Positions 3,202 to 41,075 of a DNA stretch of 64,000 nucleotides are shown here, piece by piece; positions within the stretch are counted from its first letter, which is position 1, and every line of letters begins with the position of its first letter. The notes beneath the pieces were generated by a model. That model ran no database searches and had not been told where the DNA came from. It was given only the letters and a program-made list of their open reading frames with translations. A program made the position numbers and the translations under genes. The stretch lies in NCBI GenBank assembly GCA_037445735.1, contig JBBIJY010000001.1:96001-160000 (forward strand), given 5' to 3'. The stretch comes from Armatimonadota bacterium (lineage in GTDB: Bacteria; Armatimonadota; Fimbriimonadia; Fimbriimonadales; GBS-DC).

Positions 3202-4485
3202 CTACCGATAGCCTATCAGCACGGGGTTCTCCAGCACGCGCTTCAGCTCCTGTAAGAATCGGGCGCCCGTCGCACCGTCCAGCACGCGATGGTCGCACGA
3301 GAGCGTGACCTTCATGCGGGAGCGAGGCTGAATGGAGCCGTCGTCCATCACCACAGGCACCTTCTTCACCGCGCCAACCGCCAGAATCGCGCTCGCGGGC
3401 GGGTTGATAATCGCCGCGAACTCGTCAATATCGAACATGCCCAGATTCGACACGGTAAAGGTGTTGCCCGTCATCTCATCAGGTAACAGTTTGCCCTCGC
3501 GCGCCTTCTGGATGAGCGCCTGCGCCTCCTGCGCAATGCGCAGCAGCGGCTTGCTCTCGCAGTGGCGCACAACGGCGACCAGCAGACCCTCGTCCACCGC
3601 AACGGCGATCCCGATATGGATGCCGTCGGCATAGACCAGCGTCCCGTCGCGATAGGAGGCGTTGACAAGGGGGTGCTTCTCAATCGCGACGGCACACGCC
3701 TTGAGAACCAGATCGTTCACGCTGACGCGCACGCCCTCCTCGAGGCGATTGAGCGTTTCGCGCAGGGCGAGCGCTTCCTCCATGTCGATTTCGATGGTGA
3801 GGTAGAAGTGGGGGATGGTCTGCTTGGCTTCGGTGGTGCGCTGAGCGGTGATCTGGCGCAGGCGGTTCAACGACTCCGTGCGGGCGGCGATGGGCGCAGG
3901 TGCAGGCGCGACGGCAGCGGGTTGCGCCGCGCGCTGCTGGAGATACGCCAGCACATCGCGCTCCACGATGCGCCCCTGCGGTCCCGTGCCTTTCAGCAGG
4001 CGCAGGTCGATGCCATGCTCCCGCGCGATTTTGCGAGCGAGCGGGGAGGCGAGGATGCGTTCAGCCCTCACCCCCTGACCCTCTCCCCCGCTGGGGGCGA
4101 GGGGAGTTTCAGCCCTCTCCCCCACTGGGGGAGAGGGTACGGGTGAGGGGGCAATCGTGGGCGGGACGCCCACGCTACTCGGTGGTACGGGTGAGGGGGC
4201 TTCGGCAGGTTTGCCGTCCCGATCAAGTTCGGCGGGCAGCGATTCGCCTTCGGCTAAGATATACGCCAGCGGGGTGTTGATGGGCACGGTCGCGCCCTCC
4301 TGAACACGAATGCCGCGCAGGATACCCGATGCGGGCGCCTCCAGCTCAATCGTTGCCTTGTCGGTCGCGATTTCAGCAATCGGCTCGCCCGCTTTGACCA
4401 TCTCGCCCTCCTGCTTGAGCCAGCGGACGAGCGTGCCCTCCTCCATCGCGTCGCCCATCTTCGGCATTATCACGGTCTGCATCAT
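3202..4485 (-). CDS. pdhC: Pyruvate dehydrogenase E2, dihydrolipoamide acetyltransferase
   Basis: Lipoyl domain (TDKA), subunit-binding domain (ASPLARK...GTGPQGRI), catalytic DHRVLDG. Confidence 0.93.
   Translation of the reverse strand: MMQTVIMPKMGDAMEEGTLVRWLKQEGEMVKAGEPIAEIATDKATIELEAPASGILRGIRVQEGATVPINTPLAYILAEGESLPAELDRDGKPAEAPSPVPPSSVGVPPTIAPSPVPSPPVGERAETPLAPSGGEGQGVRAERILASPLARKIAREHGIDLRLLKGTGPQGRIVERDVLAYLQQRAAQPAAVAPAPAPIAARTESLNRLRQITAQRTTEAKQTIPHFYLTIEIDMEEALALRETLNRLEEGVRVSVNDLVLKACAVAIEKHPLVNASYRDGTLVYADGIHIGIAVAVDEGLLVAVVRHCESKPLLRIAQEAQALIQKAREGKLLPDEMTGNTFTVSNLGMFDIDEFAAIINPPASAILAVGAVKKVPVVMDDGSIQPRSRMKVTLSCDHRVLDGATGARFLQELKRVLENPVLIGYR
4065..4151. repeat. BoxC-like double-hairpin palindromic repeat, in frame inside the pdhC linker
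   Basis: ccctcaccc..ccctctccccc-gct-gggggcgagggg..ccctctccccc-act-gggggagaggg-tac-gggtgagggg. Confidence 0.9.
4155..4178 (-). repeat. GTAG-type REP-like palindrome
   Basis: Minus strand reads GTAG-CGTGGGCG-TCC-CGCCCACG (perfect 8-bp stem). Confidence 0.6.
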
Positions 4486-4495
4486 TCCAGCCTCC

Positions 4496-5470
4496 CTATG
4501 TCAGCACCTGCCTGACCGCCGCGATCACATCGTCCACCTGCGGGTAGGCGGCGCGTTCCAGATATTTGTTGTAGGGCATCGGCACATCGGCGCCCGCCAC
4601 GCGCAGCACGGGCGCGTCCAGCCAGTCGAACGCCTGCTCCTGAATCTGGGCGGCAATCTCCGCGCCGAAGCCGCAGTAGCGCCAGTCATCGTGCAGGGCA
4701 ATCGCGCGGTGCGTCTTGCGCACCGAGTTGAACACCGTCTCCCAGTCGCAGGGCATGAGCGTGCGCAGGTCGACAATCTCCACCTCGATACCCTCCTGCT
4801 GGAGGCGTTCGGCAGCCTGCTGGGCGAGCAGCACCCCGCGCGAATAGGTGATGATCGACACATCGCGCCCGACGCGCTTGATGTCCGCCACGCCGAACGG
4901 GATGGTGTATTCACCATCGGGCACCTCACCCCGCGTCAGGTACAGCTGCGGATGCTCAATAAACATCACGGGGTTATTGTCGCGGATGGCGGTCTTCAGC
5001 AGCCCTTTGGCGTCGGCAGGTGTGGAGGGCAGCACCACCTTCAAGCCCGGCGAATGCGCCACCCACAGCTCGAAACTGTGCGAATGCTGGGCTGCCAGCT
5101 GCTTGCCCGGTCCAGCAGGACCGCGAATCACGAGCGGCACAGGGCATGCCCCGCCCGATTTGTAGAGAATCTTCGCCGCATGGTTCACAATCTGATCCAT
5201 CGCCAGGAAGGCGAAGCTCCAGGTCATCACCTCCACGACGGGTCGCAGTCCCTCCATCGCCGCCCCGATCGCAATCGCGATAAAGCCCGGCTCGGAGATG
5301 GGCGTGTCCCACACCCGATTCGGTCCATACTTCTGGAACAGCCCCTCCGTGACGCGAAAAGTGCCCTGATAGCGTCCGATGTCTTCGCCAATCAGGAACA
5401 CCGTTTCGTCTCTGTCCATCTCCTCGATCAGCGCTTCGCGAATGGCTTCGCGGAACAGTCTGGTTGCCAT
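4496..5470 (-). CDS. pdhB: Pyruvate dehydrogenase E1 beta subunit
   Basis: GEDIG, DTPISE, AAQHS motifs; SD ggagg upstream. Confidence 0.93.
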   Translation of the reverse strand: MATRLFREAIREALIEEMDRDETVFLIGEDIGRYQGTFRVTEGLFQKYGPNRVWDTPISEPGFIAIAIGAAMEGLRPVVEVMTWSFAFLAMDQIVNHAAKILYKSGGACPVPLVIRGPAGPGKQLAAQHSHSFELWVAHSPGLKVVLPSTPADAKGLLKTAIRDNNPVMFIEHPQLYLTRGEVPDGEYTIPFGVADIKRVGRDVSIITYSRGVLLAQQAAERLQQEGIEVEIVDLRTLMPCDWETVFNSVRKTHRAIALHDDWRYCGFGAEIAAQIQEQAFDWLDAPVLRVAGADVPMPYNKYLERAAYPQVDDVIAAVRQVLT

Positions 5471-5485
5471 GCTGGAAACCTCCGT

Positions 5486-6493
5486 TCAGTCGGCGAACAC
5501 ATGCTGCCAGAGCTCGTCCAGCGGTGGGTCAGCGCTCTCATCGGCGTAGCGGGCAGCTTCTTCGACGATGCGCTGCGCCTGCTGGTCAATCGCTTCCAGC
5601 TCCTGCTCGGTGCAGATGCCGTTCTGCAGCAGGTAGTGTTGCAGGTTCGGGATGGGGTCGCGCTTGCGCCACTCTTCGATCTCCTCGCGCGTGCGATACG
5701 AGCCAGGATCGGTGATGTCGGCGGCGCCGTGCCCCACGAAGCGATAGGTGATTGCCTCCACGAAGTAGGGTTCCTGGCGCGTGCGCACATGGTGGATGAT
5801 CTCGCGCGCCGCCTCGCGCACCTTCAGCACATCCATGCCGTCGATCTGGCAGCTGGGAAAGCCGTACACGGAGGCGCGCTCCGCCAGGTTCGTCACCGCC
5901 GAGTGCAGTTCGACGGGCGTGCCCATCGCGTACTTATTGTTCTCCACGATGTAGACGATGGGCAGCTTCCACAGCCCTGCCATATTGAGGCATTCGTGCA
6001 GCAGTCCGGCGTTCATCGCGCCGTCGCCGAAGAAGCAGAGCGTGATGCCGTCGCTCTGCCGATACTTCTGGCTGAAGGCGACGCCCGTCGCGATGCCGAT
6101 CACGCCGCCCACAATCGCGTAGCCACCCAGAAAGTTATGCGCCTTATCATAAAAGTGCATCGAGCCGCCCTTGCCGCGGCACAGCCCGGTGACCTTGCCG
6201 TACAGTTCCGCCATCACGCGGCGCGGGTCGCTGCCCAGCGCCAGCACATAGCCGTGATCGCGATAGTGCCCCAGCACGCGGTCGTTCGGCTGCAACTGCG
6301 AGATGAAGCCAACTGCCAGCGCCTCCTCACCGATATACAGGTGAAGATAGCCACCAATCTTGTCCTGGCGATACGCCCGATCGCAGTGCTGCTCGAAGTG
6401 CCGAATCAGCACCATCTGGCGATAGAGTTCCAGCAGCTCCTCGCGCTCCTCTTTGGAGAGCGCCGCCTTTTTCGTTCGGGTACGGGTACTCAT
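5486..6493 (-). CDS. pdhA: Pyruvate dehydrogenase E1 alpha subunit
   Basis: GYLHLYIGEEA, TPP-binding GDGA..NN; start set at MSTRTR after SD aaggagg. Confidence 0.93.
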   Translation of the reverse strand: MSTRTRTKKAALSKEEREELLELYRQMVLIRHFEQHCDRAYRQDKIGGYLHLYIGEEALAVGFISQLQPNDRVLGHYRDHGYVLALGSDPRRVMAELYGKVTGLCRGKGGSMHFYDKAHNFLGGYAIVGGVIGIATGVAFSQKYRQSDGITLCFFGDGAMNAGLLHECLNMAGLWKLPIVYIVENNKYAMGTPVELHSAVTNLAERASVYGFPSCQIDGMDVLKVREAAREIIHHVRTRQEPYFVEAITYRFVGHGAADITDPGSYRTREEIEEWRKRDPIPNLQHYLLQNGICTEQELEAIDQQAQRIVEEAARYADESADPPLDELWQHVFAD

Positions 6494-6605
6494 AGCAACC
6501 TCCTTCTGTGCGCGGAGTGCCTGCCGCCCCATCGCGTGCAACGCCGACGCATCATAAGTGTACCCGACTGACAGGCGGGAATGCCGTTTCGGGGCGCGAA
6601 TCACC

Positions 6606-7904
6606 ATGCTGGCGATGGCGAACTATCTGTTGCGGCACGGGCGCGTGATAGACCCCGCTCAGGGGCTGGATAGTCGAGCCGATGTGCGCATTCGGGACGG
6701 GCGAATCGCCGAGATTGCACCCCAGCTCACGCCTGAAGCGGGCGAAACGCTCATCGACTGCGCCGACTGCTGGGTCGCGCCCGGGCTGGTGGACATCCAT
6801 GTGCATCTGCGCGAGCCAGGTCAGAGCTATAAGGAGACTCTTCAGTCGGGCGGTGAGGCGGCGGTCGCGGGTGGGTTCACCTCCATCTGCTGTATGCCGA
6901 ACACGGAGCCGCCGCTCGATAGCCCTGCGCTGGTGCGCGAGCTGCTGTGGCGGGCGGAGCGCGAATCGCCCTGCAGGGTCTATGTGGTGGCGGCGCTCAC
7001 GCAGGCGATGCGCGGCGAGCAGCTCTGCGACTATGCGGCGCTCAGGCAGGCGGGCGCGGTCGCTGTCAGCGACGATGCGTTCCCCATCCAGTCGGCAGCG
7101 GTCATGCGACGGGCGATGCGCGCCTGCGCCGCAATCGGGCTGCCCGTGCTGACCCACTGCGAGGATCAGAGCCTGACCACTGGCGCGTCGATGCATGAGG
7201 GCGAGGTGAGCGCACGGCTGGGGCTGCGCGGAATGCCTGCCTCCGCCGAAACAATAATGATTGCCCGCAACGCCCTGCTCGCGCTCGAAACGGGCTGCCA
7301 CCTCCACATCCAGCACCTGTCAACGGCTGTCGGACTGGAGCTGGTTCGGCTCTTTCGGCGGCTGGGCGCGTCGCTCACGACGGAAGTCACGCCCCACCAT
7401 CTGCTGCTGACCCATCATGCCTGCGACGGTTTCAACACCGACGCGAAGATGAACCCGCCGTTGCGCACGCAGGCGGACTGCGACGCGCTCAGCGAAGGGC
7501 TGATTGCAGGCGACATCGACTGCATAGCGACCGACCACGCGCCTCACGCCGCCTTTGAGAAGGAGCAGCCGTTCGGTCAGGCGCCGTTCGGGATTGTGGG
7601 GCTGGAGACCGCACTGGGCTGCATTCTGCACTGGAACGCGGCGCGAGGCGAGCCGCTCAGTCCGCTGGAGCTGCTTTATCGACTCAGCACGCGCCCCGCG
7701 CAGATACTGGGCTTGCCCGCAGGCACTTTGCAGGTGGGCGCGCCCGCCGATGTGGTGGTGATCGACCCCAGCGCCCGCTGGACGGTGGACCCTGCCGGGT
7801 TCCGTTCGCTGGGCAAAAGCACGCCCTTCGCCCGCTGGGAACTGCCGGGCAGGGTACGCTACACCTTTGTTGGCGGCGAGCGCGTGTATCCACCCTCTCC
7901 CTGA
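6606..7904 (+). CDS. pyrC: Dihydroorotase (multifunctional complex type)
   Basis: DIHVHLREPG, MPNT, KMNPPLR, ATDHAPH; start could instead be 6615. Confidence 0.9.
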   Translation: MLAMANYLLRHGRVIDPAQGLDSRADVRIRDGRIAEIAPQLTPEAGETLIDCADCWVAPGLVDIHVHLREPGQSYKETLQSGGEAAVAGGFTSICCMPNTEPPLDSPALVRELLWRAERESPCRVYVVAALTQAMRGEQLCDYAALRQAGAVAVSDDAFPIQSAAVMRRAMRACAAIGLPVLTHCEDQSLTTGASMHEGEVSARLGLRGMPASAETIMIARNALLALETGCHLHIQHLSTAVGLELVRLFRRLGASLTTEVTPHHLLLTHHACDGFNTDAKMNPPLRTQADCDALSEGLIAGDIDCIATDHAPHAAFEKEQPFGQAPFGIVGLETALGCILHWNAARGEPLSPLELLYRLSTRPAQILGLPAGTLQVGAPADVVVIDPSARWTVDPAGFRSLGKSTPFARWELPGRVRYTFVGGERVYPPSP

Positions 7905-7964
7905 AGAAAGGGAAGGATTACAAATCCCCCGCGCTCCAGAATGGGGGAAGATACGGGTGAGGGG
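7893..7964. repeat. Degenerate BoxC-like repeat over the pyrC stop, between convergent genes
   Basis: ccctctccc..agggaagg..ccccc..ggggg..tacgggtgagggg. Confidence 0.65.
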
Positions 7965-7965
7965 T

Positions 7966-8787: not shown

Positions 8788-8903
8788 CACACGAACCTCC
8801 TGCACCCACCCCGATTCGGGAAGCCCTGCCCCACTCCTGCTGGATAGCCGATCCGGGAGCTGACCACTCACGATGGGTATAATCGCTGGCGAGGGAGGCA
8901 GCA

Positions 8904-11164: not shown

Positions 11165-11167
11165 CGC

Positions 11168-12708: not shown

Positions 12709-12713
12709 CGCCT

Positions 12714-12746
12714 ATTATCGGCAACCGTTCGATGCCTGATTAGCCC
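12714..12746 (-). promoter_or_regulatory. Sigma28-like bipartite promoter GGGCTAATC-N12-GTTGCCGATAAT
   Basis: GCCGATAA is the sigma28 -10 consensus; same motif and spacing at 41095-41127. Confidence 0.6.
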
Positions 12747-12801
12747 GAAAGTTGCCTGGTCTCCACTCGCGCAGGTATAATCGCTGCACTTCAGGTGAAC
12801 G

Positions 12802-15417: not shown

Positions 15418-15510
15418 CGCCCTTGCAGCGCATTCGGAATCTTACCTGTTCACAGCGTGCAATCGGGTATCCTTCAGGGCAGGCGCGTTTACAGGGAGGG
15501 CTGGATAGTT

Positions 15511-17966: not shown

Positions 17967-18421
17967 TTTATGTGCTTCATCGGGAGCAGATTATCCCGGC
18001 ACCGCTTGAGCGTGTGTGGGACTACTTCGCAACGCCGCTGAATCTGAACGCGATTACACCGCCCGATCTGCACTTTGAGATTGTGCGCGGCGGCGAACAG
18101 CGCATGTACGCCGGGCAGGTGATTGAATATCGGGTGTCGATAGTGCCCGGCGTGCGGGTGCGCTGGCTTACCCAGATAACCCATGTGGAGCCGTTGCGCA
18201 TGTTTATCGATGAACAGCGCATCGGACCCTACCGACTCTGGATCCATGAGCATCGGTTCGTGCCAGAGGGCGACTCGGTGCGAATGATTGACCATGTGAC
18301 CTATGCGCTTCCGTTCGGCGTGATAGGGCGGCTGGCGCATGCACTGTTTGTGCGGCGTCGCCTGGACCACATTTTTGATTTTCGGCGGCGGAAGGTGGAG
18401 GAACTGTTCGGGGGTCAGTAA
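17963..18421 (+). CDS. SRPBCC/START-fold lipid-binding protein
   Basis: [34 protein letters not shown] overlap with crtI. Confidence 0.8.
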
Positions 18422-18437
18422 GGTAGACTTGCATGGG

Positions 18438-20654
<2,217 letters not shown>

Positions 20655-20679: not shown

Positions 20680-21072
20680 ATGAAACCGAACGAGTTGCTG
20701 GAACGGTTGCAAGCGCCGCCGATACCGCTGCGAATCGATGAGGACGGCGCGCTGCGTGTCGGTGAAACGCGGATCACGCTGGAAACCGTGCTGATTGGCT
20801 TCCAGAATGGCAGCAGCCCAGAAGAGCTGGTGCTGCAGTACCCCGTGCTGAAACTCGAAGATGTCTACACCCTGCTGGCATATTACCTGCATAATCGCGC
20901 CCTGTTTGACCAGTTTCTGGAATCCATTCGGCACGAGGCGGAAGCGAAGTTCGCCCATTATGAACGGCTCTACCCGACCGCCGATCTACGCAAACGCCTG
21001 CTGGTCAGCGGCGGGGCTGGGCATTATGCTCGCGCTGGAGCGCTTCAAAAATCTGCTCCACCTGCGCGTTGA
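20680..21072 (+). CDS. DUF433-family putative antitoxin
   Basis: RVGETRITLETVL..GSSPEEL..YPVLKLEDVY..AYYL pattern. Confidence 0.75.
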   Translation: MKPNELLERLQAPPIPLRIDEDGALRVGETRITLETVLIGFQNGSSPEELVLQYPVLKLEDVYTLLAYYLHNRALFDQFLESIRHEAEAKFAHYERLYPTADLRKRLLVSGGAGHYARAGALQKSAPPAR

Positions 21073-23131
21073 CCTCTTCATCGGTCAGCGTGCGTTCAGG
21101 ATGGCGGAACACCAGCGCGAAGGCGAGGCTGTGGCAGCCTTCGGGCACCGGCGCGCCCGTGTAGCGGTCAAAAAGTTGCACCGATTCGAGCCATTCGCCG
21201 CCCGCCTGCCAGATGGTGGCAAACAGGCGCGCGGCGGGCACGCTCTGCGCCACAATCACAGCAATATCACGCAGAACGGGCGGTTGCGTCGGCAGCGGGC
21301 GATAGCGCACCTCGTGCGTGGACAACTCGCGCAACGCCTCCAGATCGAACTCGGCAAGGTAAACCCGTCGGCGGAACCCGTACTGGCGCTGGAGTTCAGG
21401 ATGCAGCTCGCCCAGCCGCCCCAGCCACCTGCCACTCGCTTCCACATCCGCCACGCGCCCTGGATGGAAGCGCCGATCCGCCTGAACTCCCTTGCCCCCC
21501 TCACCCGTGGAAGACTCAGAAACCTCCTTGCCCTGCTGGGGCGCGGGATCAAGATATTCCGCCTGAATGCCCAGCATGGTCAATAGATGCTCCACCACGC
21601 CCTTGAGCGCGTAGAAGTCAGCCTCGCGCGGCTTGCCCGTCCAGTGCGGCGCGTGCAGGGCGCCCGTCATCACGATTCCCAGCGCGAGCCGCTCCTGATA
21701 GCCATCAGAACCCCTGCTGAACACACGCCCGATCTCGAACAGATGCAGGTCGGCAATCCCGTGTCGGCGGTTATGGTCCGCGGCAAACAGCAGCCCCGAT
21801 AGAATCGAAGTGCGCAGATAGCGCAGCTCATCGCTCATCGGGTTGAGCAGTTCGACAGGCGGCAGAAGCTGCAGGGGGTTCGCTGGCTCCAGCGTGTGGC
21901 TGACAATCTCCTGCAGACCTGCGCCGAGCAGAATGGTGCGCACGCGCTCGGCGAAGGCGCCTTCCGGGCTATCTTTGCCCTGCGTGGTCAGCCCTGCAGG
22001 CGGCGATTCGGGGATGCGCTCATAGCCCAGAATGCGCCCCAGCTCCTCAATTACATCCTCCTCGCGCTTGAGGTCTTCATAGCGATAGAACGGAACCTGC
22101 AGGGTGAAGACGCCCGCTTCGCGCCCGACAGGTCGCAGGTTCAGTCGGGTCAGAACCGCCTGCGCCTCAGCGGGGTCTATCGCGAAGCCCAGCAGCTTTT
22201 CAGCGCGCGTGATCCGCACAGTCAGCTCGCGCGACGGGTACGGCTTCGGATACACATCCAGCACACCCGCCACCGCCACGACACCCGTCCACTGCTCAAT
22301 CAGCTCGCACACGCGCACCTGCGCCGCAACCACCAGATTCGGGTCCACGAAACGCTCGAAGCGATAGGACGATTCGGTGCGCAGCCCCAGCTCGCGGGCG
22401 GTGCGCCGAATCGAAAGCGGATTAAAATGCGCCGATTCCATCAGGATATGGCGCGTTTGTGGGGTGACTTCCGTTTCTGCACCACCCATGATGCCTGCGA
22501 CGGCGACGGGGCGCACAGCATCGCAGATCATCAGCATCGGGGGCTTGATGGCGTGTTCGCGCCCATCCAGCGTCTGGATGCGCTCGCCCTCGCGCGCCTG
22601 CCGCACAACGATGCGCCTTTCCTGAAGCGTATCCAGGTCGAACGCATGCAGCGGCTGACCCAGCTCCAGCAGCACATAGTTGGTGGCGTCGACAATATTG
22701 TTGATGGGGCGCATGCCCGCCGCATGGAGACGCTGCTGAACCCTGACGGGCGAAGGCGCGATGCGCACATCCCTGATCACCCGCGCCGCATAGCGCGGAC
22801 ACAGGTCAGGGTCCAGAATCTCCACCGCTGCATACTGGGGCACCTCGCCAGGGTCGGGCGCAGGCGGGTTCAGAATCAGCGCGTTAAGCCGTTCAAACAG
22901 GGGTGTCGGCTGGCACAAGTCGCCCAGAATCGCGACCACCTCGCGAGCGATGCCAAAAATGCTCAAACAATCGCCCCGATTGGGCGTGATATAGAGCACC
23001 AGCACCTCACCATCGGGCGTGGTGTCGATCTCTTCCACTTCCAGCCCCGCCATCGTCAGCCGTTCGGCTAACGCCGACACGCTCAGGTCGAACTGCACGA
23101 ACTCCTTCAGCCACTCAATCGGGACGCGCAT
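21005..23131 (-). CDS. pheT: Phenylalanine-tRNA ligase beta subunit (short form lacking the B2 OB domain)
   Basis: ITPNRGDCLS, NNIVDATNY, EEDVIEE, C-terminal FDX domain (RTLTDEEV). Confidence 0.95.
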   Translation of the reverse strand: MRVPIEWLKEFVQFDLSVSALAERLTMAGLEVEEIDTTPDGEVLVLYITPNRGDCLSIFGIAREVVAILGDLCQPTPLFERLNALILNPPAPDPGEVPQYAAVEILDPDLCPRYAARVIRDVRIAPSPVRVQQRLHAAGMRPINNIVDATNYVLLELGQPLHAFDLDTLQERRIVVRQAREGERIQTLDGREHAIKPPMLMICDAVRPVAVAGIMGGAETEVTPQTRHILMESAHFNPLSIRRTARELGLRTESSYRFERFVDPNLVVAAQVRVCELIEQWTGVVAVAGVLDVYPKPYPSRELTVRITRAEKLLGFAIDPAEAQAVLTRLNLRPVGREAGVFTLQVPFYRYEDLKREEDVIEELGRILGYERIPESPPAGLTTQGKDSPEGAFAERVRTILLGAGLQEIVSHTLEPANPLQLLPPVELLNPMSDELRYLRTSILSGLLFAADHNRRHGIADLHLFEIGRVFSRGSDGYQERLALGIVMTGALHAPHWTGKPREADFYALKGVVEHLLTMLGIQAEYLDPAPQQGKEVSESSTGEGGKGVQADRRFHPGRVADVEASGRWLGRLGELHPELQRQYGFRRRVYLAEFDLEALRELSTHEVRYRPLPTQPPVLRDIAVIVAQSVPAARLFATIWQAGGEWLESVQLFDRYTGAPVPEGCHSLAFALVFRHPERTLTDEEVNAQVEQIFEALQREHNAQPRR

Positions 23132-26717: not shown

Positions 26718-29525
26718 TTATGTAAGCTGCTGGAGCCGCGTGGCAATTCGCTGATGGCGTTCCATCAGCTCCTGCTCCTGGGCGCGGGTCTCCTGCACCA
26801 CTTCGGGGCGGGCGCGCTCCAGAAATTGGGGGTTGCGCAGGCGTGCCTGCACGCGCCGCAGCTCCTCCTCCACCCTGTTGAGTTCGCGCTGCAGGCGTTC
26901 ACGCTCGCGCCCGATGTCGATGACGCCTTCGACGGGCAGGTAGACCTCCGCGCCGTCGGTGGGGTTCATCAGCGCGCGCTCCGTCGGCGTGCCCCAGCGA
27001 ATCTCGCGGCACCAGGCGAGGTACTCCATCAGCGGCTGATGGCGCTGCAAGCGCATGCGACCGAGATTGTCCGTCGGATTCAACCACACCAGCGGGATTT
27101 CGACGCCGGGCGTGATATTGACCTCCGCGCGCAGGTTGCGAATGGCGCGAATGGTTTCGAACACCTGTGCGATTTCGGCTTCCGCCTCAGGGTCGATAAG
27201 CGCGGGGTTCGCCTGCGGGAAGGGCGCACGGATCAGCGCAGGACAATCGGGCGTCGCGCCAATCGCCTGCCACAGCTCCTCGCTGATGTGCGGCATGTAG
27301 GGATGCAGCAGGCGCAGAATCTGGTCAAACAGGTAGACGAGCATCGCCTGCGTCCGGGCGCGGCGGGCGGTGTCCTGCAGGCGCGGCTTGCACGCCTCGA
27401 TATACCAGTCGCACACCTCGCTCCAGATGAACTCATAGAGGGCGTTCGCGCCGTCATCGAAGCAGTAGTTCGTGAGCGCGGTCTGAACCGCGTCGATGGT
27501 GCGCTGCAGGCGGCTCAGCACCCAGCGATCCAGCACATCAGCAGGCTGTGCCCCCATCTGGCGCAGGGTCGCTAAATCGGCATCGCTCAGGTTCAGCAGC
27601 ACGAACCGCGTGGCGTTCCACACCTTGTTCGCGAAGTTGCGGGCGTTCACCACGCGCTCCTCATAGAAGCGGATCGACTGCTGCATGCCCGCCTGCTGAA
27701 GCAGCGACCAGCGCAGGGCGTCCGTGCCATACTTGTCGATCATCTCCAGCGGGTCGATGCCCGTGCCGAGCGATTTGGACATCCGCCTGCCCTCTTTGTT
27801 CAGCACGGTCGCGTGGATGTACACCTCGTGGAAGGGCACATCGCCCACGAAATAAAGCCCCGTCATAATCATGCGGGCAACCCACAGGTAAAGAATCTCC
27901 TGCGCCGTAATCAGCACATTGGTGGGATAAAAAAGACGCAGCTCGTCCGAGGCGCGGGGCCAGCCCAACACGGTCTGGGGCCAGATGGCGGAGGAGAACC
28001 ATGTGTCCAGCACATCGGGGTCGCGCACGAGGCGCGTGCTGCCACAACGCGGGCATCGGTCAGGCGCGCTCTTTTGCACAATGGGGCTTTCCCGCCGCTT
28101 GAGGCGGTATCGCACCCCCTCACCCGTACCCTCTCCCCCTGATGGGAGAGAGGGACTTTGAACCCCCGCTCCCCTCTGGGGTGAGGGGTCAGTCAACAGC
28201 TCAAAGTTTTCGGGATGGCAATCGATGCAGTACCATGCGGGAATCTGGTGTCCCCACCAGAGCTGGCGGGAGATGCACCAGTCGCGAATGTTCTCCATCC
28301 AGTTCAGGTACATTTCGGTGTAGCGTTCGGGAATGAAGCGCACCTTGCCCTGCTTCACGACCTCGATGGCGGGTCTGGCGATTGGCTCCATGCGGCAGAA
28401 CCACTGCTCGCTCAGGAGCGGCTCGATGACCGTGTGGCAGCGTTCACAGCGCGAGAGCGGCACCGTGTGGTCTTCCACTTTCACCAGATAGCCCGCCTGC
28501 TGAAGGTCCTCCACGATCAGCCGGCGCACCTCGTAGCGGTCTTTGCCATGATACTTTTGCAGGTAGGGGTTGGCGTGAGCGTTGAGTTCCTCGCGCAGGC
28601 GCTCGGTGTTGATGGTGGCGTCCTCGTTAATCACGATGGGGCGAGGCAGGTTGTGCCGCTGCCCCATTTCGAAGTCGTTCGGGTCGTGGGCGGGCGTCAC
28701 CTTGACCGCGCCTGTGCCGAAGGCGGGATCGGGGTAGGGATCGGCAATCAGCGGGATGAGCCGGTTCACCAGTGGCAGGCGCAGGGTGCGTCCGATCAGC
28801 CCCTGATAGCGTCCATCGGCAGGGTTGACCGCCACCGCCACATCGCCCAGCATCGTTTCGGGGCGTGTGGTCGCAACCACCACGCCGCCCTCGCCCTCCG
28901 CGAACGGATAGAGGATGTGATAGAGCTTGCCCGCCTCTTCCGTGCGCTCCAGCTCAATGTCGGAGAGGGCGGTTCGGCACCGGGGACACCAGTTGATGAC
29001 GCGCTCGCCAATATAGAGATGCCCATCCTGCCACCAGCGCACAAACACCTCCAGCACGGCGTCGGCATATTCGGGGTCGAGCGTGAAGCGGGTATAGCGC
29101 CAGTCGTAGGAGCAGCCGAGCCGACGGAACTGCATCAGGATCGTGTTGCCATACTGCTCGCGCCACTGCCACACGCGCTCCAGGAACTTCTCACGCCCCA
29201 GTTGCTGGCGGGTCAGTCCCTCCTTGAGCAGTTCACGCTCCACCACATTCTGGGTGGCGATGCCCGCATGGTCGGTGCCCGGCACGCACAGCACATTGTA
29301 GCCCTGCATGCGCTTCCAGCGCAGCAGCACATCGTGGATGGTGTTGTTCAGCGCGTGCCCCATGTGGAGTGAACCCGTGATGTTGGGCGGCGGGATAGTG
29401 ATGCAGTAGCGCGGGCGACCGTCATCGGCGATGACCGCCTCAAAATCGCCCCGCTCCAGCCACCACTGATACCGCCGCTGCTCCACCTGATGCGGGTCAT
29501 AAGTTTTCGGCAACTCCTGCGCCAT
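26718..29525 (-). CDS. valS: Valine-tRNA ligase
   Basis: PPPNITGSLHMGH, DWCISRQLWWGH, RMSKS, C-terminal coiled coil. Confidence 0.97.
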   Translation of the reverse strand: MAQELPKTYDPHQVEQRRYQWWLERGDFEAVIADDGRPRYCITIPPPNITGSLHMGHALNNTIHDVLLRWKRMQGYNVLCVPGTDHAGIATQNVVERELLKEGLTRQQLGREKFLERVWQWREQYGNTILMQFRRLGCSYDWRYTRFTLDPEYADAVLEVFVRWWQDGHLYIGERVINWCPRCRTALSDIELERTEEAGKLYHILYPFAEGEGGVVVATTRPETMLGDVAVAVNPADGRYQGLIGRTLRLPLVNRLIPLIADPYPDPAFGTGAVKVTPAHDPNDFEMGQRHNLPRPIVINEDATINTERLREELNAHANPYLQKYHGKDRYEVRRLIVEDLQQAGYLVKVEDHTVPLSRCERCHTVIEPLLSEQWFCRMEPIARPAIEVVKQGKVRFIPERYTEMYLNWMENIRDWCISRQLWWGHQIPAWYCIDCHPENFELLTDPSPQRGAGVQSPSLPSGGEGTGEGVRYRLKRRESPIVQKSAPDRCPRCGSTRLVRDPDVLDTWFSSAIWPQTVLGWPRASDELRLFYPTNVLITAQEILYLWVARMIMTGLYFVGDVPFHEVYIHATVLNKEGRRMSKSLGTGIDPLEMIDKYGTDALRWSLLQQAGMQQSIRFYEERVVNARNFANKVWNATRFVLLNLSDADLATLRQMGAQPADVLDRWVLSRLQRTIDAVQTALTNYCFDDGANALYEFIWSEVCDWYIEACKPRLQDTARRARTQAMLVYLFDQILRLLHPYMPHISEELWQAIGATPDCPALIRAPFPQANPALIDPEAEAEIAQVFETIRAIRNLRAEVNITPGVEIPLVWLNPTDNLGRMRLQRHQPLMEYLAWCREIRWGTPTERALMNPTDGAEVYLPVEGVIDIGRERERLQRELNRVEEELRRVQARLRNPQFLERARPEVVQETRAQEQELMERHQRIATRLQQLT
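28115..28188. repeat. BoxC-like repeat, in frame inside valS
   Basis: ccccctcaccc-gta-ccctctccccc-tgat-gggagagaggg...ggggtgagggg. Confidence 0.88.
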
Positions 29526-29591
29526 AGCGGAGAATATTGTACCTTTCACCATCGCCGCAGCGATTCAGGTATAATGGAGAGGTGGTGGCAG

Positions 29592-30591: not shown

Positions 30592-30621
30592 CGACAGTTA
30601 AAATAGCCGTGTTCCGCAAGC

Positions 30622-31995: not shown

Positions 31996-32013
31996 TCGCG
32001 TGCCTCCACCCTA

Positions 32014-34046: not shown

Positions 34047-34116
34047 CGTTTTTAACCTCCCTGCGTAGCATGGACGACGAATCGTCGCCCTGGTTCCCCC
34101 AGTATACCCGCTCGAT

Positions 34117-35634: not shown

Positions 35635-35692
35635 CGATGCCCTCCAGCATGGAGTGAATATACCTGCTACGGTGTCAGGTATCCTCATAGCG

Positions 35693-36820
35693 ATGGACGC
35701 GCTCGGTCTCTATGTGCATATCCCGTTCTGCCACCATAAGTGCGGGTACTGCGATTTCAACTCCTATGCGGGGCTGGGGGAGCTGGCGCCCGCCTTTGTG
35801 GACGCGCTGCTTCTGGAGATCGAGCGCTGCCCTTACGCAGGCGCGCGAGCCAGCACGGTCTTCTTCGGCGGCGGCACGCCCACCTTTCTGGACGGCGCCA
35901 CCCTCGCCCGCATTCTGGAGCATCTGCATCACCGATTCAACATCGACCCCGACGCCGAAATCACCGTCGAGGCGAACCCCGGCAGCGTCGATCGGGTGCA
36001 GCTGCAGATTCTGCGGCGGGCAGGCTTCAATCGGCTCAGCTTCGGCGTGCAGTCGTTCGATGAAGCCGAGCTGAAGCGCATGGAGCGCATTCACAGCCCG
36101 CAAGAAGTGTGCGAGAGCTATGAGTGGGCGCGTGAAGCAGGCTTCGAAAACATCAATCTGGATTTGATCTTCGCCCTGCCTGACCAGACGCTGGAGCGAT
36201 GGGAGTCGAACCTCCAGCAGGCGATTGCCCTGCGCCCCGAACATCTATCGCTGTACGCGCTGATGCTGGAGCCAAACACCCGCTTCTACCACCTCTATCA
36301 AAAGGGGCAGCTGAGCCTGCCCGATGAGGAGGTGCAGGTGGCGATGTATCGGCTGGCGCAACGCCTCACGCGCGAGGCGGGCTATCGCCAGTATGAGATA
36401 TCCAACTACGCCCTGCCCGGCTATGAGTGTCGCCATAACCTGATTTACTGGCACAATTTATCGTATCTGGGCTTTGGCCCGGGCGCTGTGTCGTACTATG
36501 AGGGTCGCCGCTGGATGAATATCAAGCATCCGCGCGAATATGTGCGGCGCGTGCTGAATGGTGAGCCGCTGGAGGTGGAGAGCGAACAGCTCACAGGCTG
36601 GGATTCGGTCGCGGAGACGCTCATGCTGGGCTTGCGCATGGTGGAGGGTATCGATCTGGCGTGGTTAGAGGCGCGTTATGGTTTGCCCGTGCGGGCGCAT
36701 TATCGCCCTGTGCTGGAGCGGCTGACACGGCGGGGCTGGCTGATTCAGGATGGCTCGTGCATTCGCCTCACCGACGAGGGTCTACTCTGGCATAGCGAGG
36801 TCGCCCTGGCGTTTTTGTAG
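35693..36820 (+). CDS. hemW: Radical SAM heme chaperone (HemN-like)
   Basis: LYVHIPFC..KCGYCDF, FGGGTP, EANP, YEISN, HN..YW. Confidence 0.9.
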   Translation: MDALGLYVHIPFCHHKCGYCDFNSYAGLGELAPAFVDALLLEIERCPYAGARASTVFFGGGTPTFLDGATLARILEHLHHRFNIDPDAEITVEANPGSVDRVQLQILRRAGFNRLSFGVQSFDEAELKRMERIHSPQEVCESYEWAREAGFENINLDLIFALPDQTLERWESNLQQAIALRPEHLSLYALMLEPNTRFYHLYQKGQLSLPDEEVQVAMYRLAQRLTREAGYRQYEISNYALPGYECRHNLIYWHNLSYLGFGPGAVSYYEGRRWMNIKHPREYVRRVLNGEPLEVESEQLTGWDSVAETLMLGLRMVEGIDLAWLEARYGLPVRAHYRPVLERLTRRGWLIQDGSCIRLTDEGLLWHSEVALAFL

Positions 36821-36825
36821 CGCGA

Positions 36826-37416
36826 TCAGCTTTGCCGACTGAGCGTGATGGTGCGACTTTCATCAGGTTGGGGCTGGATGGTGATATGCCAGTGGTGGCG
36901 GGGTGTGTAGTCGAAGCCGAGCGCGGGCAGGGTTTCGCCCCACTCGATGAGGGTGATACCGCCGCGCTCCAGCAGTTCGTCCAGCCCCAGCGTGTGCAGT
37001 TGCGCCGCGCTCTCGATGCGATAAAGGTCGAGGTGGAACAGGGGCAATCCCGCGAGCGCGGGCGGCTGGCGAATGGTGTATTCGTTCACGAGGGTGAAGG
37101 TGGGGCTGCGAATCGGCTCGGTGATGCCGAGCGCGCGGCACAGCCCACGAATGAGCGTGGTCTTGCCTGCGCCCAGTGCGCCGCTCACTGAGATCAGCGT
37201 GTCGGGACGGAGCAGGCGGGCAATCTCCGCGCCCACCGCTTCGGTCTGTTCAGGGGAGCGCGTGTGCCAGCCGGTTGCCCCCTCACCCGTACCCTCTCCC
37301 CCGCTGGGGGAGAGGGGTTTGGATTCTCCCTCGCCCCCGCTGAGGGAGAGGGGTTTGGATTCTCCCTTGCCCCCGCTGGGGGAGAGGGGTTTTGAGCTAT
37401 TCGGCTTCCGACTCAT
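36826..37416 (-). CDS. tsaE: t6A biosynthesis ATPase with a repeat-derived N-terminal extension
   Basis: GALGAGKT, SPTFTL, HLDLYR, IEW. Confidence 0.9.
   Translation of the reverse strand: MSRKPNSSKPLSPSGGKGESKPLSLSGGEGESKPLSPSGGEGTGEGATGWHTRSPEQTEAVGAEIARLLRPDTLISVSGALGAGKTTLIRGLCRALGITEPIRSPTFTLVNEYTIRQPPALAGLPLFHLDLYRIESAAQLHTLGLDELLERGGITLIEWGETLPALGFDYTPRHHWHITIQPQPDESRTITLSRQS
37278..37389. repeat. BoxC-like repeat amplified as three 36-bp tandem hairpin units at the tsaE 5' end
   Basis: Units at 37292, 37328, 37364: ccctctcccccgctgggggagaggggtttggattct. Confidence 0.92.
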
Positions 37417-37789
37417 AGCGTTCAAAGCGGATCAGAAACTGGTCGGGGTCGACAGGCAGGTTATGTTCCAGAATGAGCTGACGGATGCGCGCGTTCATCA
37501 GCTCGACCAGCTGCTCCATTTCCTGGTTCATGCGTTCCATGCGGTCTAACAGGCGCAGGATGACTTCGACGCCGGCGAGGTTGACGCCGAGATGCTGGGT
37601 GAGGTGCTGGATGCGGCGCAGGCGGGCGATGTCGGCTTCCGAGTAGAGGCGTTTGCTGTTGCCGACACGGTGAGGCTGGATCAGCCCCAGTCGCTCGTAG
37701 AGGCGCAGGGTTTGCGGGTGCAGTCCGCACATGCGCGCCGCGACGCCAATCAGATACACAGGCTCATCCGAGAGGGGTGGTTTTCTCAT
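37397..37789 (-). CDS. hspR: MerR-family heat-shock repressor
   Basis: [28 protein letters not shown]; downstream of dnaK-dnaJ. Confidence 0.85.
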
Positions 37790-38862
37790 GAGCGTCTCAC
37801 CTCCGAGCGCAGGTTTCGAATCTGCTCCAGCAGTTCGCGTTCGCGCGGGCTGAGGTGCCTGGGCACCGTGATGCGGACACGGGCATAGAGGTCGCCGCGC
37901 TGACCACCTGCGACCGGGATGCCCTTGCCTGCCAGTCGGAAGCGGGTGCCGCTCTGGGTACCGGGCGGGATTTTCATTGTGACGGTGCCGGTGGGCGTGG
38001 GCACGCTCACCTCGCCGCCGAGCGCGGCAGTGAGATAGTCCACATCGACTTCGGTGTAGAGGTCGTTGCCCTGCCGTTCGAAGCGCGGGTCGGGCGCGAT
38101 TTTGATGCGCAGGTAGAGGTCGCCACGCTGTCCATCGCTGCCGGGGGCGCCTTCACCCTGCAGGCGCAACCGTTGCCCTTCGGCGACGCCCGGCGGCACC
38201 GTGACGGTCAGCTGGCGCGTGCGCTGGACGATGCCTCTGCCGCGGCACTGACCGCAGGGTGCACCGATGCGCCCGGTGCCGTTGCACTCATCGCAGGGCA
38301 TCTCCACGCCGAGCAGGCTGAACCGTCGGCGTCCGCGCCCACCGCAGGCGGGGCAGCTCTGGCGATGCTCTGCGCTCTCGCCCGTGCCACCACAGCGCGA
38401 GCAAAGCTCTTCTGTGTTCAGACGAATGGTGCGGGTTGTGCCCCGAATGGCTTCGTCGAGGCTGATTTCGAGCGTGTGTTCGATGTCGCGGGGAGCGGTG
38501 CGCACGCCGAAGGTGGCGCCGCCACCACCGCGTAGCAGCTGTTCGATGAACTCGGCGAAGCTGGTGAAGGGCATCTCGGTGCCCCAGGGCGCGCCGTCGA
38601 AGCCCTCGCCGTACTGCTCGCGCATGCGCTGATAGGCTTGCCACTGCTCGCCATAGCGGTCGTAGGCGGCGCGCTTTTCAGGGTCGGACAGCACCTGATA
38701 GGCTTCGTTGATCTCCTTGAACTTCTCTTCGGCTTCTTTGTCGCCGGGGTTGACATCGGGGTGATACTGGCGTGCGAGTCGGCGATACGCCGCCTTGATC
38801 TCCTTCTCGGTGGCGTTGCGCGGCACCCCAAGAATCGCATAATAATCTTTGAACCCTCGCAT
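37786..38862 (-). CDS. dnaJ: Chaperone DnaJ
   Basis: J-domain HPD; four CxxCxGxG repeats. Confidence 0.92.
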
Positions 38863-38893
38863 CGCTCGTTCACCCCGATACGGGCTGCTGTGG

Positions 38894-38935
38894 CCCCCTC
38901 ACCCCTGTACCCTCTCCCCCGCGCGGGGGAGAGGG
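38894..38935. repeat. BoxC-like single-hairpin repeat, dnaK-dnaJ intergenic
   Basis: ccccctcacccc-tgta-ccctctccccc-gcgc-gggggagaggg. Confidence 0.9.
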
Positions 38936-38941
38936 TCGCTT

Positions 38942-40840
38942 TTACGACTCGCGATACTCGGCGTCGATCACATCATCGCCGCTGGAGCGGGTGCTCCCGT
39001 CGGTGCTGCTGCCTGTGCCGCCCGACGGCTCCGCCGCGACGCGCTGATACATCTGCTCGGTGATTCGGTAGCTGAGCTGTTCCAGCTCGCTCATCAGCGA
39101 CTGCACGCGCTCGTGGTCCTGCGTCTGAATGGCGCTGCGCAGGTCGCGGATAAGCGTTTCGGCGCGTTCGCGGTCGCCCGCTGCGACCTTATCGCCGTGC
39201 TCGCGCAGGAGGCGCTCCACATCGTAGGTGAGTCGGTCAGCGCGGTTGAGCAGTTCGGCGCGTTCGCGCGCCTGGCGGTCGCGCTCGGCGTTCGCCTCCG
39301 CCTCTTTGATCATCCGCTCCACCTCCTCGCGCGAGAGGTTGGTGGAACCTGTGATGCGGATGCTCTGCTGGCGCCCCGTGCCGAGGTCCTTGGCGGTGAC
39401 ATTCAGGATGCCGTTGGCGTCGATGTCGAAGGTGACCTCGATCTGGGGCACGCCTGCAGGCGCAGGCGGGATGCCGTCCAGATGGAACACGCCGAGCAGG
39501 CGGTTATCGCGCGCCATCGGTCGCTCGCCCTGATAGACGCGCACCTCCACGCTGGTCTGCCCGTCGGCAGCAGTGGTGAAGATTTCCGACTTGCGCGTCG
39601 GGATGGTGGTGTTGCGGGGCACCAGCACGGTGAAGATGCCGCCTTTGGTCTCGATACCGAGCGAGAGGGGCGTTACATCCAGCAGCACGATATCTTTCAC
39701 CTCGCCCGACAGCACGCCCGCCTGAATCGCGGCGCCAATAGCGACCACCTCGTCGGGGTTCACGCCCTTGTGCGGCTCCTTGCCTGTGATCTGGCGCACC
39801 ATCTCCTGCACTCTGGGGATGCGCGTGGAGCCGCCCACCAGGATCACCTCGTCCACATCGGTCGGCTTCAGCCCCGCGTCCTCCAGCGCACGGAACATCG
39901 GACCCTTGAGGCGTTCAAACAGGTCGGCGCACAGCTCCTCGAACTTGGCGCGGGTGAGCGTCATATCGAGATGCTTCGGACCGCTGGCGTCCGCCGTGAT
40001 GAACGGCAGGTTAATCGTGGTGGTGGTGACGCTGGAGAGCTCGATTTTGGCGCGTTCGGCGGCTTCCTTGAGGCGCTGCAGCGCTTGCCGATCCTGGCGC
40101 AGGTCGATCCCATGCTCGCGCTTGAACTCATCGGCAAGGTAATCGACGATGCGCTGGTCGAAGTCGTCGCCACCGAGGTGGGTGTCGCCCGCCGTTGCTT
40201 TCACCTCGAACACGCCGTCGCCGACCTCCAGAATCGACACATCGAAGGTGCCGCCGCCCAGATCGAACACCAGAATGGTCTCGTTGCTCTTTTTATCGAG
40301 TCCGTAGGCGAGCGCGGCGGCGGTCGGCTCGTTGATGATGCGCAGCACTTTCAGCCCCGCGATTTCGCCCGCGTTCTTGGTGGCGGTGCGCTGGGCGTCG
40401 TTGAAGTAGGCGGGCACGGTAATGACCGCTGCCGTCACTGGCTCGCCCAGATAGGCTTCGGCGTCCGCCTTGAGCTTTTGCAAAATCATCGCCGAAATCT
40501 CTTCGGGGCGATAGGTTTTGTCCACCGCGGGGATGTAGACCGCCGCATCACCTTTGGAATCGGCGACCACCTTGTAGGGCACGCGCTTGCGCTCCTCCTC
40601 CACCTCGTCATAGCGCCGCCCCATAAAGCGCTTGATAGAGAAGATGGTATTTTCGGGGTTGACGATTGCCTGGCGCTTGGCAGGTGCGCCGATGAGTCGT
40701 TCACCCGTTTTGGTGAAGCCGACAACCGAGGGGCAGAGCCGTCCGCCCTCCGCCGTCGGAATGACCACCGGCTCGCCACCTTCCAGCACGGCAACCACCG
40801 AGTTCGTTGTGCCCAGATCAATACCCACAACTTTTGCCAT
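38942..40840 (-). CDS. dnaK: Chaperone DnaK
   Basis: [25 protein letters not shown] ggaggg. Confidence 0.97.
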
Positions 40841-40906
40841 CGCTGTCTCCCTCCGTCTGTTATCTATTCTGGCTATACGGCAACTGCTGGTCAGCAGGTT
40901 CCCGTT

Positions 40907-40951
40907 TTTGAGTGGCTCCATTATACCTGACTTGAGGGCACTATTGTCAAG
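40907..40951 (-). promoter_or_regulatory. dnaK promoter with HAIR-like HspR operator
   Basis: TTGACA-19 bp-TATAAT; CTTGAGG-N7-TGTCAAG at 40931-40951; half site TTTGAGT at 40907-40913. Confidence 0.7.
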
Positions 40952-41000
40952 AGGAAAGGTGGGTGTTCGAAAATTCGCGGGCATCATATCCGTCTGTGTG

Positions 41001-41075
41001 AAGCCCCTCACCTGCACGCGGGGGCGAGGGGCTTCGTTTCTCCCTCTCCCCTCTGGGAGAGGGTCGGGTGAGGGG
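41001..41075. repeat. BoxC-like double-hairpin repeat, dnaK/pilB intergenic
   Basis: aagcccctc..gaggggctt; ccctctccc-ctct-gggagaggg-tc-gggtgagggg. Confidence 0.85.

Follow-up and report, generated by a model that had tools for sequence, protein, structure and literature searches.

Expansion of a BoxC/TMECO-type palindromic repeat between and inside the genes of an Armatimonadota genome

BoxC/triplex-motif repeats have been known for decades, and to our knowledge no origin, mobiliser or function has been agreed for them. The published TMECO/BoxC pattern is CCCTCNCCC-N3-6-GGGNGAGGG-N3-GGGNGAGGG (Holder et al. 2015, PMC4666352). That paper reports the pattern from 262 proteobacterial genomes and the 23 copies of E. 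coli K-12 as always intergenic, and it describes uneven copy number among close relatives, unstable surroundings and no transposase found. Rickettsia RPEs and intragenic REPs, as presented by Di Nocera et al. (2013, PMC3733652), are palindromes lying in frame in known proteins, often as dimers encoding 20–30 residues, with DNA repair genes among their many hosts and inserts judged there to be tolerated rather than functional. For REP/REPIN–RAYT systems, the same source describes inverted doublets as the common unit, lineage bursts and a single-copy Y1 gene. The repeat described here, in a 2.78 Mb Armatimonadota MAG of 59 contigs (G000), resembles all of these systems in the features just listed, apart from host group and the strictly intergenic location, and it shares with BoxC/TMECO the inverted pairing of two subtypes, the kept stems with varying loops and the sequence pattern itself.

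We found that the repeat unit is a hairpin, CCCTCTCCCC-loop-GGGGAGAGGG, followed by GGGTGAGGGG. Its canonical form is an inverted pair of about 87 bp, CCCCTCACCC-hairpin-hairpin-GGGTGAGGGG, which we write c-H-H-g and in which the two hairpins differ in stem and loop length. This is the commonest composite form (34 clusters, plus arrays); arrays are frequent, with spacers of about 25 nt. An earlier note on this DNA had remarked on a resemblance to BoxC. Consistent with this, the hairpin and third G-run match the TMECO/BoxC pattern: the genome has 74 exact matches (plus strand 30, minus strand 44) and the reversed control has 0; long-stem copies with 3-nt loops miss the strict loop limit of the pattern, although the same three blocks are present. 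Set beside the E. coli sequences of Table 1 in PMC4666352, the local copies diverge chiefly in their loops. A blastn search with one window copy against 5,426 E. coli genomes gave no match, for which the low-complexity filter is the likely cause, and the E. coli comparison therefore rests on the published pattern and table. We also considered a G-quadruplex reading of the G-runs and rejected it, as the NMR data on E. coli oligonucleotides in PMC4666352 favour a triplex and argue against a quadruplex. Unlike the E. coli elements, the repeat has a host in Armatimonadota, its stems are often 11–13 bp long, it forms arrays, and some copies lie inside a 170-bp inverted-repeat element. This separate element, which carries a core copy, has inverted ends and a 9–11 bp duplication.

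The stems are near-invariant and the loops variable, as the earlier note had described, with 149 distinct loops among 506 hairpins (allowing up to two changes per arm). Its further claim of selection on structure stands only in part: 56 double changes are compensatory, 14 are non-pairing, six are G–T and 440 changes are one-sided, and shared descent inflates counts of this sort.

In the window (the whole 64-kb stretch of DNA analysed), CCCTCTCCCCC occurs 21 times with at most one mismatch, always within 4065–41052, whereas shuffled sequences averaged 1.38 occurrences and none of 100 reached 21. Eight copies had been listed there; six are clear composites and two (7893 and ~21490) are degenerate:

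4064–4198, composite copy c-H-H-g plus a further g, in the E2 acyltransferase gene (3202–4485, minus strand); from sequence and Pfam domains
7893–7965, degenerate copy overlapping the stop codon (7902–7904) of an amidohydrolase/dihydroorotase-like gene (6558–7904, plus strand); from sequence and Pfam
19730–19844, c-H-H-g copy in frame in the P-type ATPase gene CopA (18339–20654, plus strand), placed directly after the DKTGT motif
21485–21525, remnant with GGGTGAGGGG on the coding strand of PheT (21005–23131, minus strand); from comparison of G000 with G002
28110–28200, c-H-H copy in frame in ValRS (26718–29552, minus strand); from sequence and orthologue comparison
37279–37389, c followed by three 36-nt hairpin units in tandem, within the N-terminal tail of TsaE and in frame (36826–37416, minus strand); from sequence, Pfam and relatives
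38895–38935, intergenic c-H copy just downstream of the dnaK stop codon (38942); from sequence and Pfam
41001–41075, intergenic composite copy between dnaK (true start near 40828) and a divergent type II/IV secretion ATPase gene (41130–42800); from sequence, Pfam and gene calls

All four in-frame insertions claimed earlier (PdhC/E2, CopA, ValRS and TsaE) hold, PheT also carries a remnant, and core proteins read the repeat in frame from either strand. In E2, part of the linker that joins the lipoyl and E3-binding domains comes from the copy; this insert is common to the sister genome G002, and other relatives have ordinary Pro/Ala linkers in an alignment of 19. In CopA, about 40 extra residues follow DKTGT. 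This site is empty in 16 orthologues from other genera; among closer relatives, G002 is 15 residues shorter, G001 has a short remnant and G003 has a different insert. The PheT remnant lies within a 36-nt stretch absent from G002, giving 12 extra residues in G000. In TsaE, a conserved start, MSRK, precedes the repeat; the site is empty in G001, and the G002 version is shorter by 33 nt. At 7893, only the right flank was recovered in the part of G002 retrieved, and the copy at 38895 is present in G002 with 93% identity over 285 nt. The HSP70 match in the long dnaK open reading frame begins at residue 130.

The 28 residues added to ValRS sit in a zinc-knuckle-like loop, flanked by its two Cys pairs, at a place that falls between residues 424 and 434 in T. 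thermophilus ValRS (1GAX). In the AlphaFold model, residues 455–479 are coil with a pLDDT below 50; the insert is the lowest-confidence stretch of a model that averages 69.4 and is low in other parts too, which weakly suggests that it may be disordered. Contigs from two other runs of the same study skip 28110–28200, giving an empty ValRS form. We rejected polymorphism within this organism as the explanation, as these contigs match at about 94% likeness and represent a relative.

Scanning the whole genome yielded 215 clusters with 420 hairpins, of which 147 clusters are intergenic, 49 lie deep in genes, eight lie near gene ends and 11 lie at gene edges. About a quarter (57 of the 215) are wholly inside genes, in 53 host genes, as are 21 of the 74 exact TMECO-pattern matches, whereas the E. 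coli K-12 copies are reported as always intergenic. These location counts depend on gene calls from a simple in-house caller, and about 400 solitary 10-mers (c-only or g-only, one mismatch) were left out because they have no shuffle control. A dispersed, structured and non-autonomous family, as first proposed, is borne out; the repeat has no coding capacity of its own.

Host proteins are mostly recognizable, with a Pfam family in 36 of the 39 scanned. In about 24 hosts, manual reading placed domains flanking or spanning the insert, for example in CarB, pyruvate kinase, MurC/D/E, Mfd, UvrD, MutL, SMC and GlnE. Length differences inside genes between G000 and its sister species were multiples of three in 19 of 19 cases. 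Inside genes, GGGTGAGGGG is read as GEG 54 times, as VRG four times and as a stop never, so that one reading frame (PSP...GEG) dominates; among 192 intergenic copies, the GEG frame is open in 121 and the VRG frame in 117. In part these data show, and in part they suggest, a filter on insertions in genes: the survivors are those that add a multiple of three bases, bring in no stop and fall within linkers or surface loops. The open frames suggest that the inserts are translated, and the resulting Pro/Ser/Gly/Glu-rich peptides are probably disordered. In-frame insertion into conserved proteins with empty orthologue sites, the behaviour of RPEs, was found here; in contrast to RPEs and intragenic REPs, the G000 repeat lacks a GTAG/CGTC tag, is unrelated in sequence and builds arrays of up to ~100 residues.

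Comparison with relatives points to a recent expansion within this lineage. Exact hairpins number 242 in G000, 54 in G002, six in G003 and two in G001, a more than fourfold difference between sister species. Among the 57 other relatives searched, 56 have 0–2; the exception is G023, from another family, with 51. Across the phylum, 44 of 301 genomes hold the pattern, with counts of up to 212. By pattern and copy number, these comparisons show the burst in G000 to be that of a lineage-specific element of the BoxC/TMECO type ("intrastrand triplex motif"). Of 62 clusters comparable with G002, 46 are longer in G000, 14 are the same size and two are longer in G002; where G000 is longer, the G002 site is empty (19), holds a partial repeat (21) or has other sequence (6). 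Empty sites in relatives were found at ValRS, CopA, TsaE, CarB and pyruvate kinase, the last two being empty in G001, G011 and G012. Pyruvate kinase carries one module in G003, two in G002 and four in G000, and at the CarB site G002 has a single module where G000 has an array (no sequence was obtained from G003). Arrays grew stepwise and in place, and this growth, documented across four related genomes, is a further difference from RPEs and intragenic REPs. Hairpin pairs from one cluster have identical loops in 16.6% of cases, compared with 4.6% for pairs from different clusters, which points to local duplication. Fold-back (inverted) local duplication was tried and rejected, as reverse-complement loops make up 1.9% within clusters and 4.5% between them. 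Shared orthologous copies are 76% identical while their flanks are 94.4% identical, and shared in-gene copies range from 33% to 96%.

We consider it likely that three components together account for these observations: a TMECO-type burst, filtered survival inside genes and repair-based spread. The last component taken alone, spread through the replication and repair machinery of the host and not through a resident transposase, has in our judgement slightly less than an even chance. Structure-prone repeat DNA would stall or break, and repair would then copy from another repeat copy by ectopic conversion or template switching. Such copying would explain the ragged junctions without target duplication, the preferred stepwise growth at already occupied sites, the local tandem duplication and the fast change of orthologous copies. 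We infer this step from junctions and counts, and no intermediate was seen. Several observations argue against it. Sites empty in the sister need a first insertion, which homology-driven copying explains poorly; the patchy bursts across the phylum (44 of 301 genomes) look as if an enzyme were repeatedly gained and lost; and DUF559 genes are associated with the repeat in other genomes, as described below.

The main competitor holds that copies are moved in trans by an enzyme devoted to them, on the model of RAYT and REPs. Two proteins could fill this part: a DUF559 (Vsr-like) nuclease, recently lost or absent from the assembly, and the single Y1 transposase-HTH protein. We regard this as credible, if somewhat less probable than repair-based spread. 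Elsewhere in the phylum, DUF559 genes do keep company with the repeat. In G185, such a gene is bracketed by inverted copies 9 nt upstream and 22 nt downstream; in G092, it is bracketed by inverted copies at 21 and 39 nt that are the only two exact-pattern matches in that genome; and in G233, copies lie 112–269 nt away. Of the 18 DUF559 loci inspected, three had copies nearby. The family occurs in 38 of 44 genomes with the motif and in 145 of 257 without it (odds ratio 4.9, Fisher p 1e-4, ignoring kinship and genome size), and in E. coli K-12, TMECO no. 9 is 168 nt from ycjD, a DUF559 gene. The nuclease named as a candidate mobiliser in the earlier note could not, however, be found in this genome: searches with PF04480 gave no match in G000, G002 (with its 54 hairpins) or G003, and hence no repeat-bracketed copy there, whereas the repeat-poor G001 has two matches.

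The other candidate named there, a tyrosine transposase, fared no better in G000. The sole PF01797 Y1 transposase-HTH gene (C1:174906–175553) is single-copy and without TnpB, as RAYT genes are, but its nearest repeat cluster is 4.4 kb away, and its protein scores 33 bits against the RAYT model, for which the cut-off is 80. The gene does not follow the distribution of the repeat: 26 of 28 family genomes retain it, among them all 17 genomes of genus g3 with zero exact hairpins, and the repeat-rich G023 gives no match. In these respects it differs from the Y1 genes of REP/REPIN–RAYT systems. The consensus of 30 canonical copies has GTA/TAC between its blocks and no terminal GTAG or CGTC, and junctions between the core repeat and empty sites show no target-site duplication, as a MITE would leave, and no fixed ends. 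G000 also has no multi-copy transposase and no TnpB. Repeats flank five genes on both sides. Sequence and coordinates identify one of them as DnaK, and the products of the other four, judged by eye without a family search, have no likeness to nucleases or transposases. With 59 contigs and 18 clusters at contig ends, a repeat-flanked gene could be missing from the assembly.

A less probable reading is that intergenic copies are kept as host RNA or DNA signals (terminators, mRNA stabilisers or structural sites) and that copies in genes are by-products. Gaps between convergent genes hold 35 of the 129 typed intergenic clusters while making up 12% of intergenic bases, and the conserved stems with variable loops would suit such a role. 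We nevertheless think it improbable, given the more than fourfold difference in copy number between sister species, the faster change of orthologous copies than of their flanks and the 27 clusters in divergent promoter regions; for the E. coli elements, the Discussion of PMC4666352 cites an earlier study in which neither promoter nor terminator activity was seen. On another view, selection would act on the Pro/Gly-rich peptides themselves, as repeats at the protein level with a function such as linker or binding motif, and the DNA palindromes would be secondary. The dominant frame and the location of inserts in linkers and loops would fit, but this view is very hard to credit when 147 of the 215 clusters lie between genes, unrelated hosts read the same DNA from either strand, sister orthologues have no inserts or other module numbers, shared in-gene copies can fall to 33% identity, and a search with one array region against 5.8 billion proteins found six, five of them from this genome and one from NCBI.

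Repeats of this general kind are already known from Rickettsia RPEs and intragenic REPs. What is new is a triplex-motif element inside genes, in Armatimonadota and at such a scale, although the species lists of PMC4666352 may already include non-proteobacterial hosts. Our literature search on TMECO found only that paper, and none naming Armatimonadetes or Armatimonadota with such repeats. Because the burst is recent and a close sister species is available, sites of insertion, their junctions and the steps of growth can be traced directly by comparison. G000 is a test case against the idea that DUF559 is always needed, as none was found here, yet repeats bracket the gene elsewhere in the phylum. 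The in-frame colonisation of 53 genes, including those of aminoacyl-tRNA synthetases, Mur ligases and DNA repair proteins, amounts to a natural experiment in loop acquisition. A bolder reading, which we hold to be rather unlikely, is that the repeat spreads without a dedicated enzyme, its folded DNA causing breaks or stalled replication after which host repair copies it, and includes, in this lineage, a subfamily adapted to coding sequence, with units in multiples of three bases and one open frame. If this were true, the DUF559 association seen elsewhere would not be required for spread, and about 2% of the proteins of this organism would carry disordered loops that grow stepwise.

Allowing at most one mismatch, we counted 21 occurrences of the motif CCCTCTCCCCC in the window, all of them confined to positions 4065-41052; shuffled sequences gave a mean of 1.4 matches, and none of 100 shuffles reached 21. 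The element has three building blocks, which we call c (CCCCTCACCC), H (CCCTCTCCCC-loop-GGGGAGAGGG) and g (GGGTGAGGGG). The earlier note had listed about eight palindromic copies here. By direct reading of the sequence, we found clear composite copies at six of these eight sites, a degenerate copy overlapping a stop codon at 7893 and a remnant near 21490. Its observation of a dispersed repeat was confirmed, and its interpretation, a mobile element supplying new protein loops, was partly supported.

The genome that holds the window (G000; 2,782,722 bases in 59 contigs, 62% G+C) contains 420 hairpins in 215 clusters when one change per arm is allowed. The commonest composite form is c-H-H-g, of about 87 bp (34 clusters), and arrays are numerous besides. 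According to our own codon-usage gene caller, which predicted 2,370 genes occupying 88.6% of the sequence, 147 of the 215 clusters are intergenic, 11 straddle a gene edge and 57 lie fully inside genes, spread over 53 of them. Of the internal clusters, 49 are deep within genes, five are at most 50 codons from a start and three at most 30 codons from a stop. Cluster density per megabase is about 20-fold higher in intergenic than in coding DNA, which fits the removal of most in-gene insertions by purifying selection. Gaps between convergent genes are enriched in copies (35 of 129 typed intergenic clusters versus 12% of intergenic bases).

The caller left uncalled a 693-residue open reading frame (ORF) antisense to dnaK in the window (38849-40930, plus strand), which matches Pfam NAD-GH (PF10712, 2.5e-152), a family considered to be a spurious translation of the strand opposite dnaK. 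A lower-GC stretch of the window (47299-49419) includes the following gene:
Window 48571-49419, minus strand: DNA methylase (N6_N4_Mtase)
It adjoins a 423-residue ORF in which no Pfam family was found, and the two may be a restriction-modification pair amid housekeeping genes.

As had been proposed, copies lie in frame in core proteins. Pfam identified the window hosts as E2 acyltransferase, CopA (nearest named relative, a MAG labelled 'Armatimonadota bacterium', 61% identical), ValRS, TsaE and PheT, the last with 12 extra residues bearing the g block. Among 39 further host proteins scanned, 36 have a Pfam family at E ≤ 1e-5, and in about 24, as read from the tables, matched domains flank the insert or one domain spans it (three of these rest on a second domain stretch counted without printed coordinates). 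Hosts include CarB, pyruvate kinase, MurC-Ddl, MurD, MurE, Mfd, UvrD, MutL, SMC (hit twice), GlnE, an M16 peptidase with three arrays and a class A penicillin-binding protein. Host proteins are long, at a median of 524 residues; the median over all genes is 301, and weighting by length predicts 418 (95% range 349-504).

Reading frames within genes are biased: GGGTGAGGGG is read in the GEG frame 54 times, in the VRG frame four times and never in the stop frame, and CCCCTCACCC in the PSP, PLT and PHP frames 32, 12 and two times, respectively, motifs of one array being non-independent in these counts. Because the frames of intergenic copies are about equally open (GEG 121, VRG 117 and PSP 122 of 192), stop codons alone fail to account for this bias, to which either tolerance at the peptide level or copying between arrays inside genes must also contribute.

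Relatives have empty sites. The 28-residue ValRS insert is absent from the sister species (G002), at 93% identity across the full-length protein alignment, from the relative G001 and from 14 aligned orthologues of other genera, and the empty form also occurs on contigs from two further sequencing runs in the same study. The insertion point corresponds to the stretch from residue 424 to residue 434 in the T. thermophilus enzyme; another relative, G003, has a repeat copy there too, but a different one. In the AlphaFold model, which is only moderate as a whole, the insert is the lowest-confidence stretch and lacks secondary structure. The CopA site is empty in 16 of 16 orthologues from other genera, and CopA of G002 has one module fewer than that of G000. 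TsaE has a conserved start, MSRK, upstream of its insert, and its site is empty in G001. The E2 repeat makes up part of the flexible linker, and G002 has this repeat as well. CarB and pyruvate kinase are both empty in G001, G011 and G012. CarB has one module in G002 and an array in G000, no sequence having been obtained for this site from G003; pyruvate kinase has one module in G003, two in G002 and four in G000. These site comparisons show that arrays grew stepwise in place.

When the sequences flanking each of the 215 clusters were placed on the 1.2 Mb of G002 used, both sides of 64 clusters fell on a single contig. Fourteen of these were the same size in both species, 19 were empty in G002, 21 retained part of the repeat, six held other sequence, two were longer and two were unclear. 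All 19 in-gene length differences were multiples of three; outside predicted genes 17 of 29 were, versus about 10 expected, an excess over chance that may reflect either missed genes or unit lengths favouring threes. Shared orthologous copies are 76% identical, versus 94.4% for their flanks. Junctions of the core repeat are ragged, with no target duplication.

A longer element of 165-170 bp, with inverted ends GAGGSTGTTCGAAAA...TTTTCGAACASCCTC and a c-H-H-g core in its middle, has a 9-11 bp target duplication where the G002 site is empty. One copy sharing its ends has unrelated inner sequence, and we found no partner transposase for the element. Its sites lie outside the window:
G000 C20:39693-39862
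G000 C8:100656-100824
About 22 further sites in G000

H plus g fits the BoxC/TMECO intrastrand triplex pattern given by Holder et al. 2015 (PMC4666352), bearing out a suspected resemblance: G000 has 74 exact matches, versus none in a reversed control. That paper describes 3,610 copies across 262 proteobacterial genomes, two subtypes as inverted pairs, raised variability around copies and no associated mobility genes. It places the 23 copies of E. coli K-12 as 'always located intergenically', whereas 21 of the 74 matches in G000 are within genes. In-frame behaviour of this sort, for which Rickettsia palindromic elements (RPEs) had been invoked, is known from RPEs and intragenic REPs (PMC3733652). 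The element is of the known BoxC/TMECO type, and its behaviour of the known RPE/intragenic REP kind.

The pattern occurs in 44 of 301 sampled Armatimonadota genomes, with counts up to 212 and zero in all reversed controls. In a repeat-rich genome of another family (G023), the same three blocks are set in a different larger repeat; one locus there (C20:26295-27121, L277) has seven tandem units of about 133 nt, each with one triplex motif. In four other repeat-rich genomes of the phylum, none of 22 copies with enough context, taken as first-listed loci rather than a random draw, lay in a long open frame; the same rule gave 23 of 65 copies in G000 and three of eight in G002. One array region searched against 5.8 billion proteins returned six, five from G000 and one from NCBI.

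The repeat underwent a burst in this lineage, with stepwise growth in place, survival in frame and no target duplication. We tentatively favour spread by repair copying, in which structure-prone DNA would provoke repair that copies the repeat. The ragged junctions, the growth at sites already holding a copy and the 3.6-fold excess of identical loops within clusters over between clusters all point this way.

Spread by an unseen enzyme is possible but somewhat less likely. In G000 we found no TnpB and, among its predicted proteins, no multi-copy transposase, and none of five repeat-flanked products, judged by reading, was nuclease- or transposase-like. The few multi-copy families include several paralogue pairs in tandem, each protein being about 180-210 residues long:
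G000 C2:5647-6931
G000 C3:71458-72576
G000 C5:57356-58565
G000 C18:45623-46844

The DUF559/Vsr-like nuclease put forward in the earlier note had no match in G000, G002 or G003; the repeat-poor G001 has two. Elsewhere, copies bracket or lie near DUF559 in three of 18 loci examined, nearby in G233 and, in two genomes, as inverted triplex-motif copies within 9-39 nt on both sides:
G185 L318 1457-1875: DUF559 gene
G092 L321 1449-1882: DUF559 gene
The bracketing copies in G092 are its only exact-pattern matches, and the arrangement resembles that of RAYT transposase genes bracketed by REPs. DUF559 is present in 38 of 44 motif-positive versus 145 of 257 motif-negative genomes (uncorrected for kinship or genome size), and in E. 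coli the distance between TMECO no. 9 and the DUF559 gene ycjD is 168 nt. With DUF559 unmatched here and supported elsewhere, either G000 is a counter-example or its assembly is incomplete. The other proposed mobiliser, a tyrosine transposase, found no support in the single-copy gene located:
G000 C1:174906-175553, about 15 kb past the window end: Y1 (IS200-like) transposase
The protein joins this Y1 domain to a helix-turn-helix resembling sigma-70 region 4, no repeat lies within 4 kb, and the gene, kept in 26 of 28 family genomes and unmatched in G023, is present independently of the repeat and passed down vertically across the family.

Relative to the literature found, three things are new: a BoxC/TMECO-type element inside genes, Armatimonadota as its host phylum, and the scale of colonisation with documented stepwise growth.
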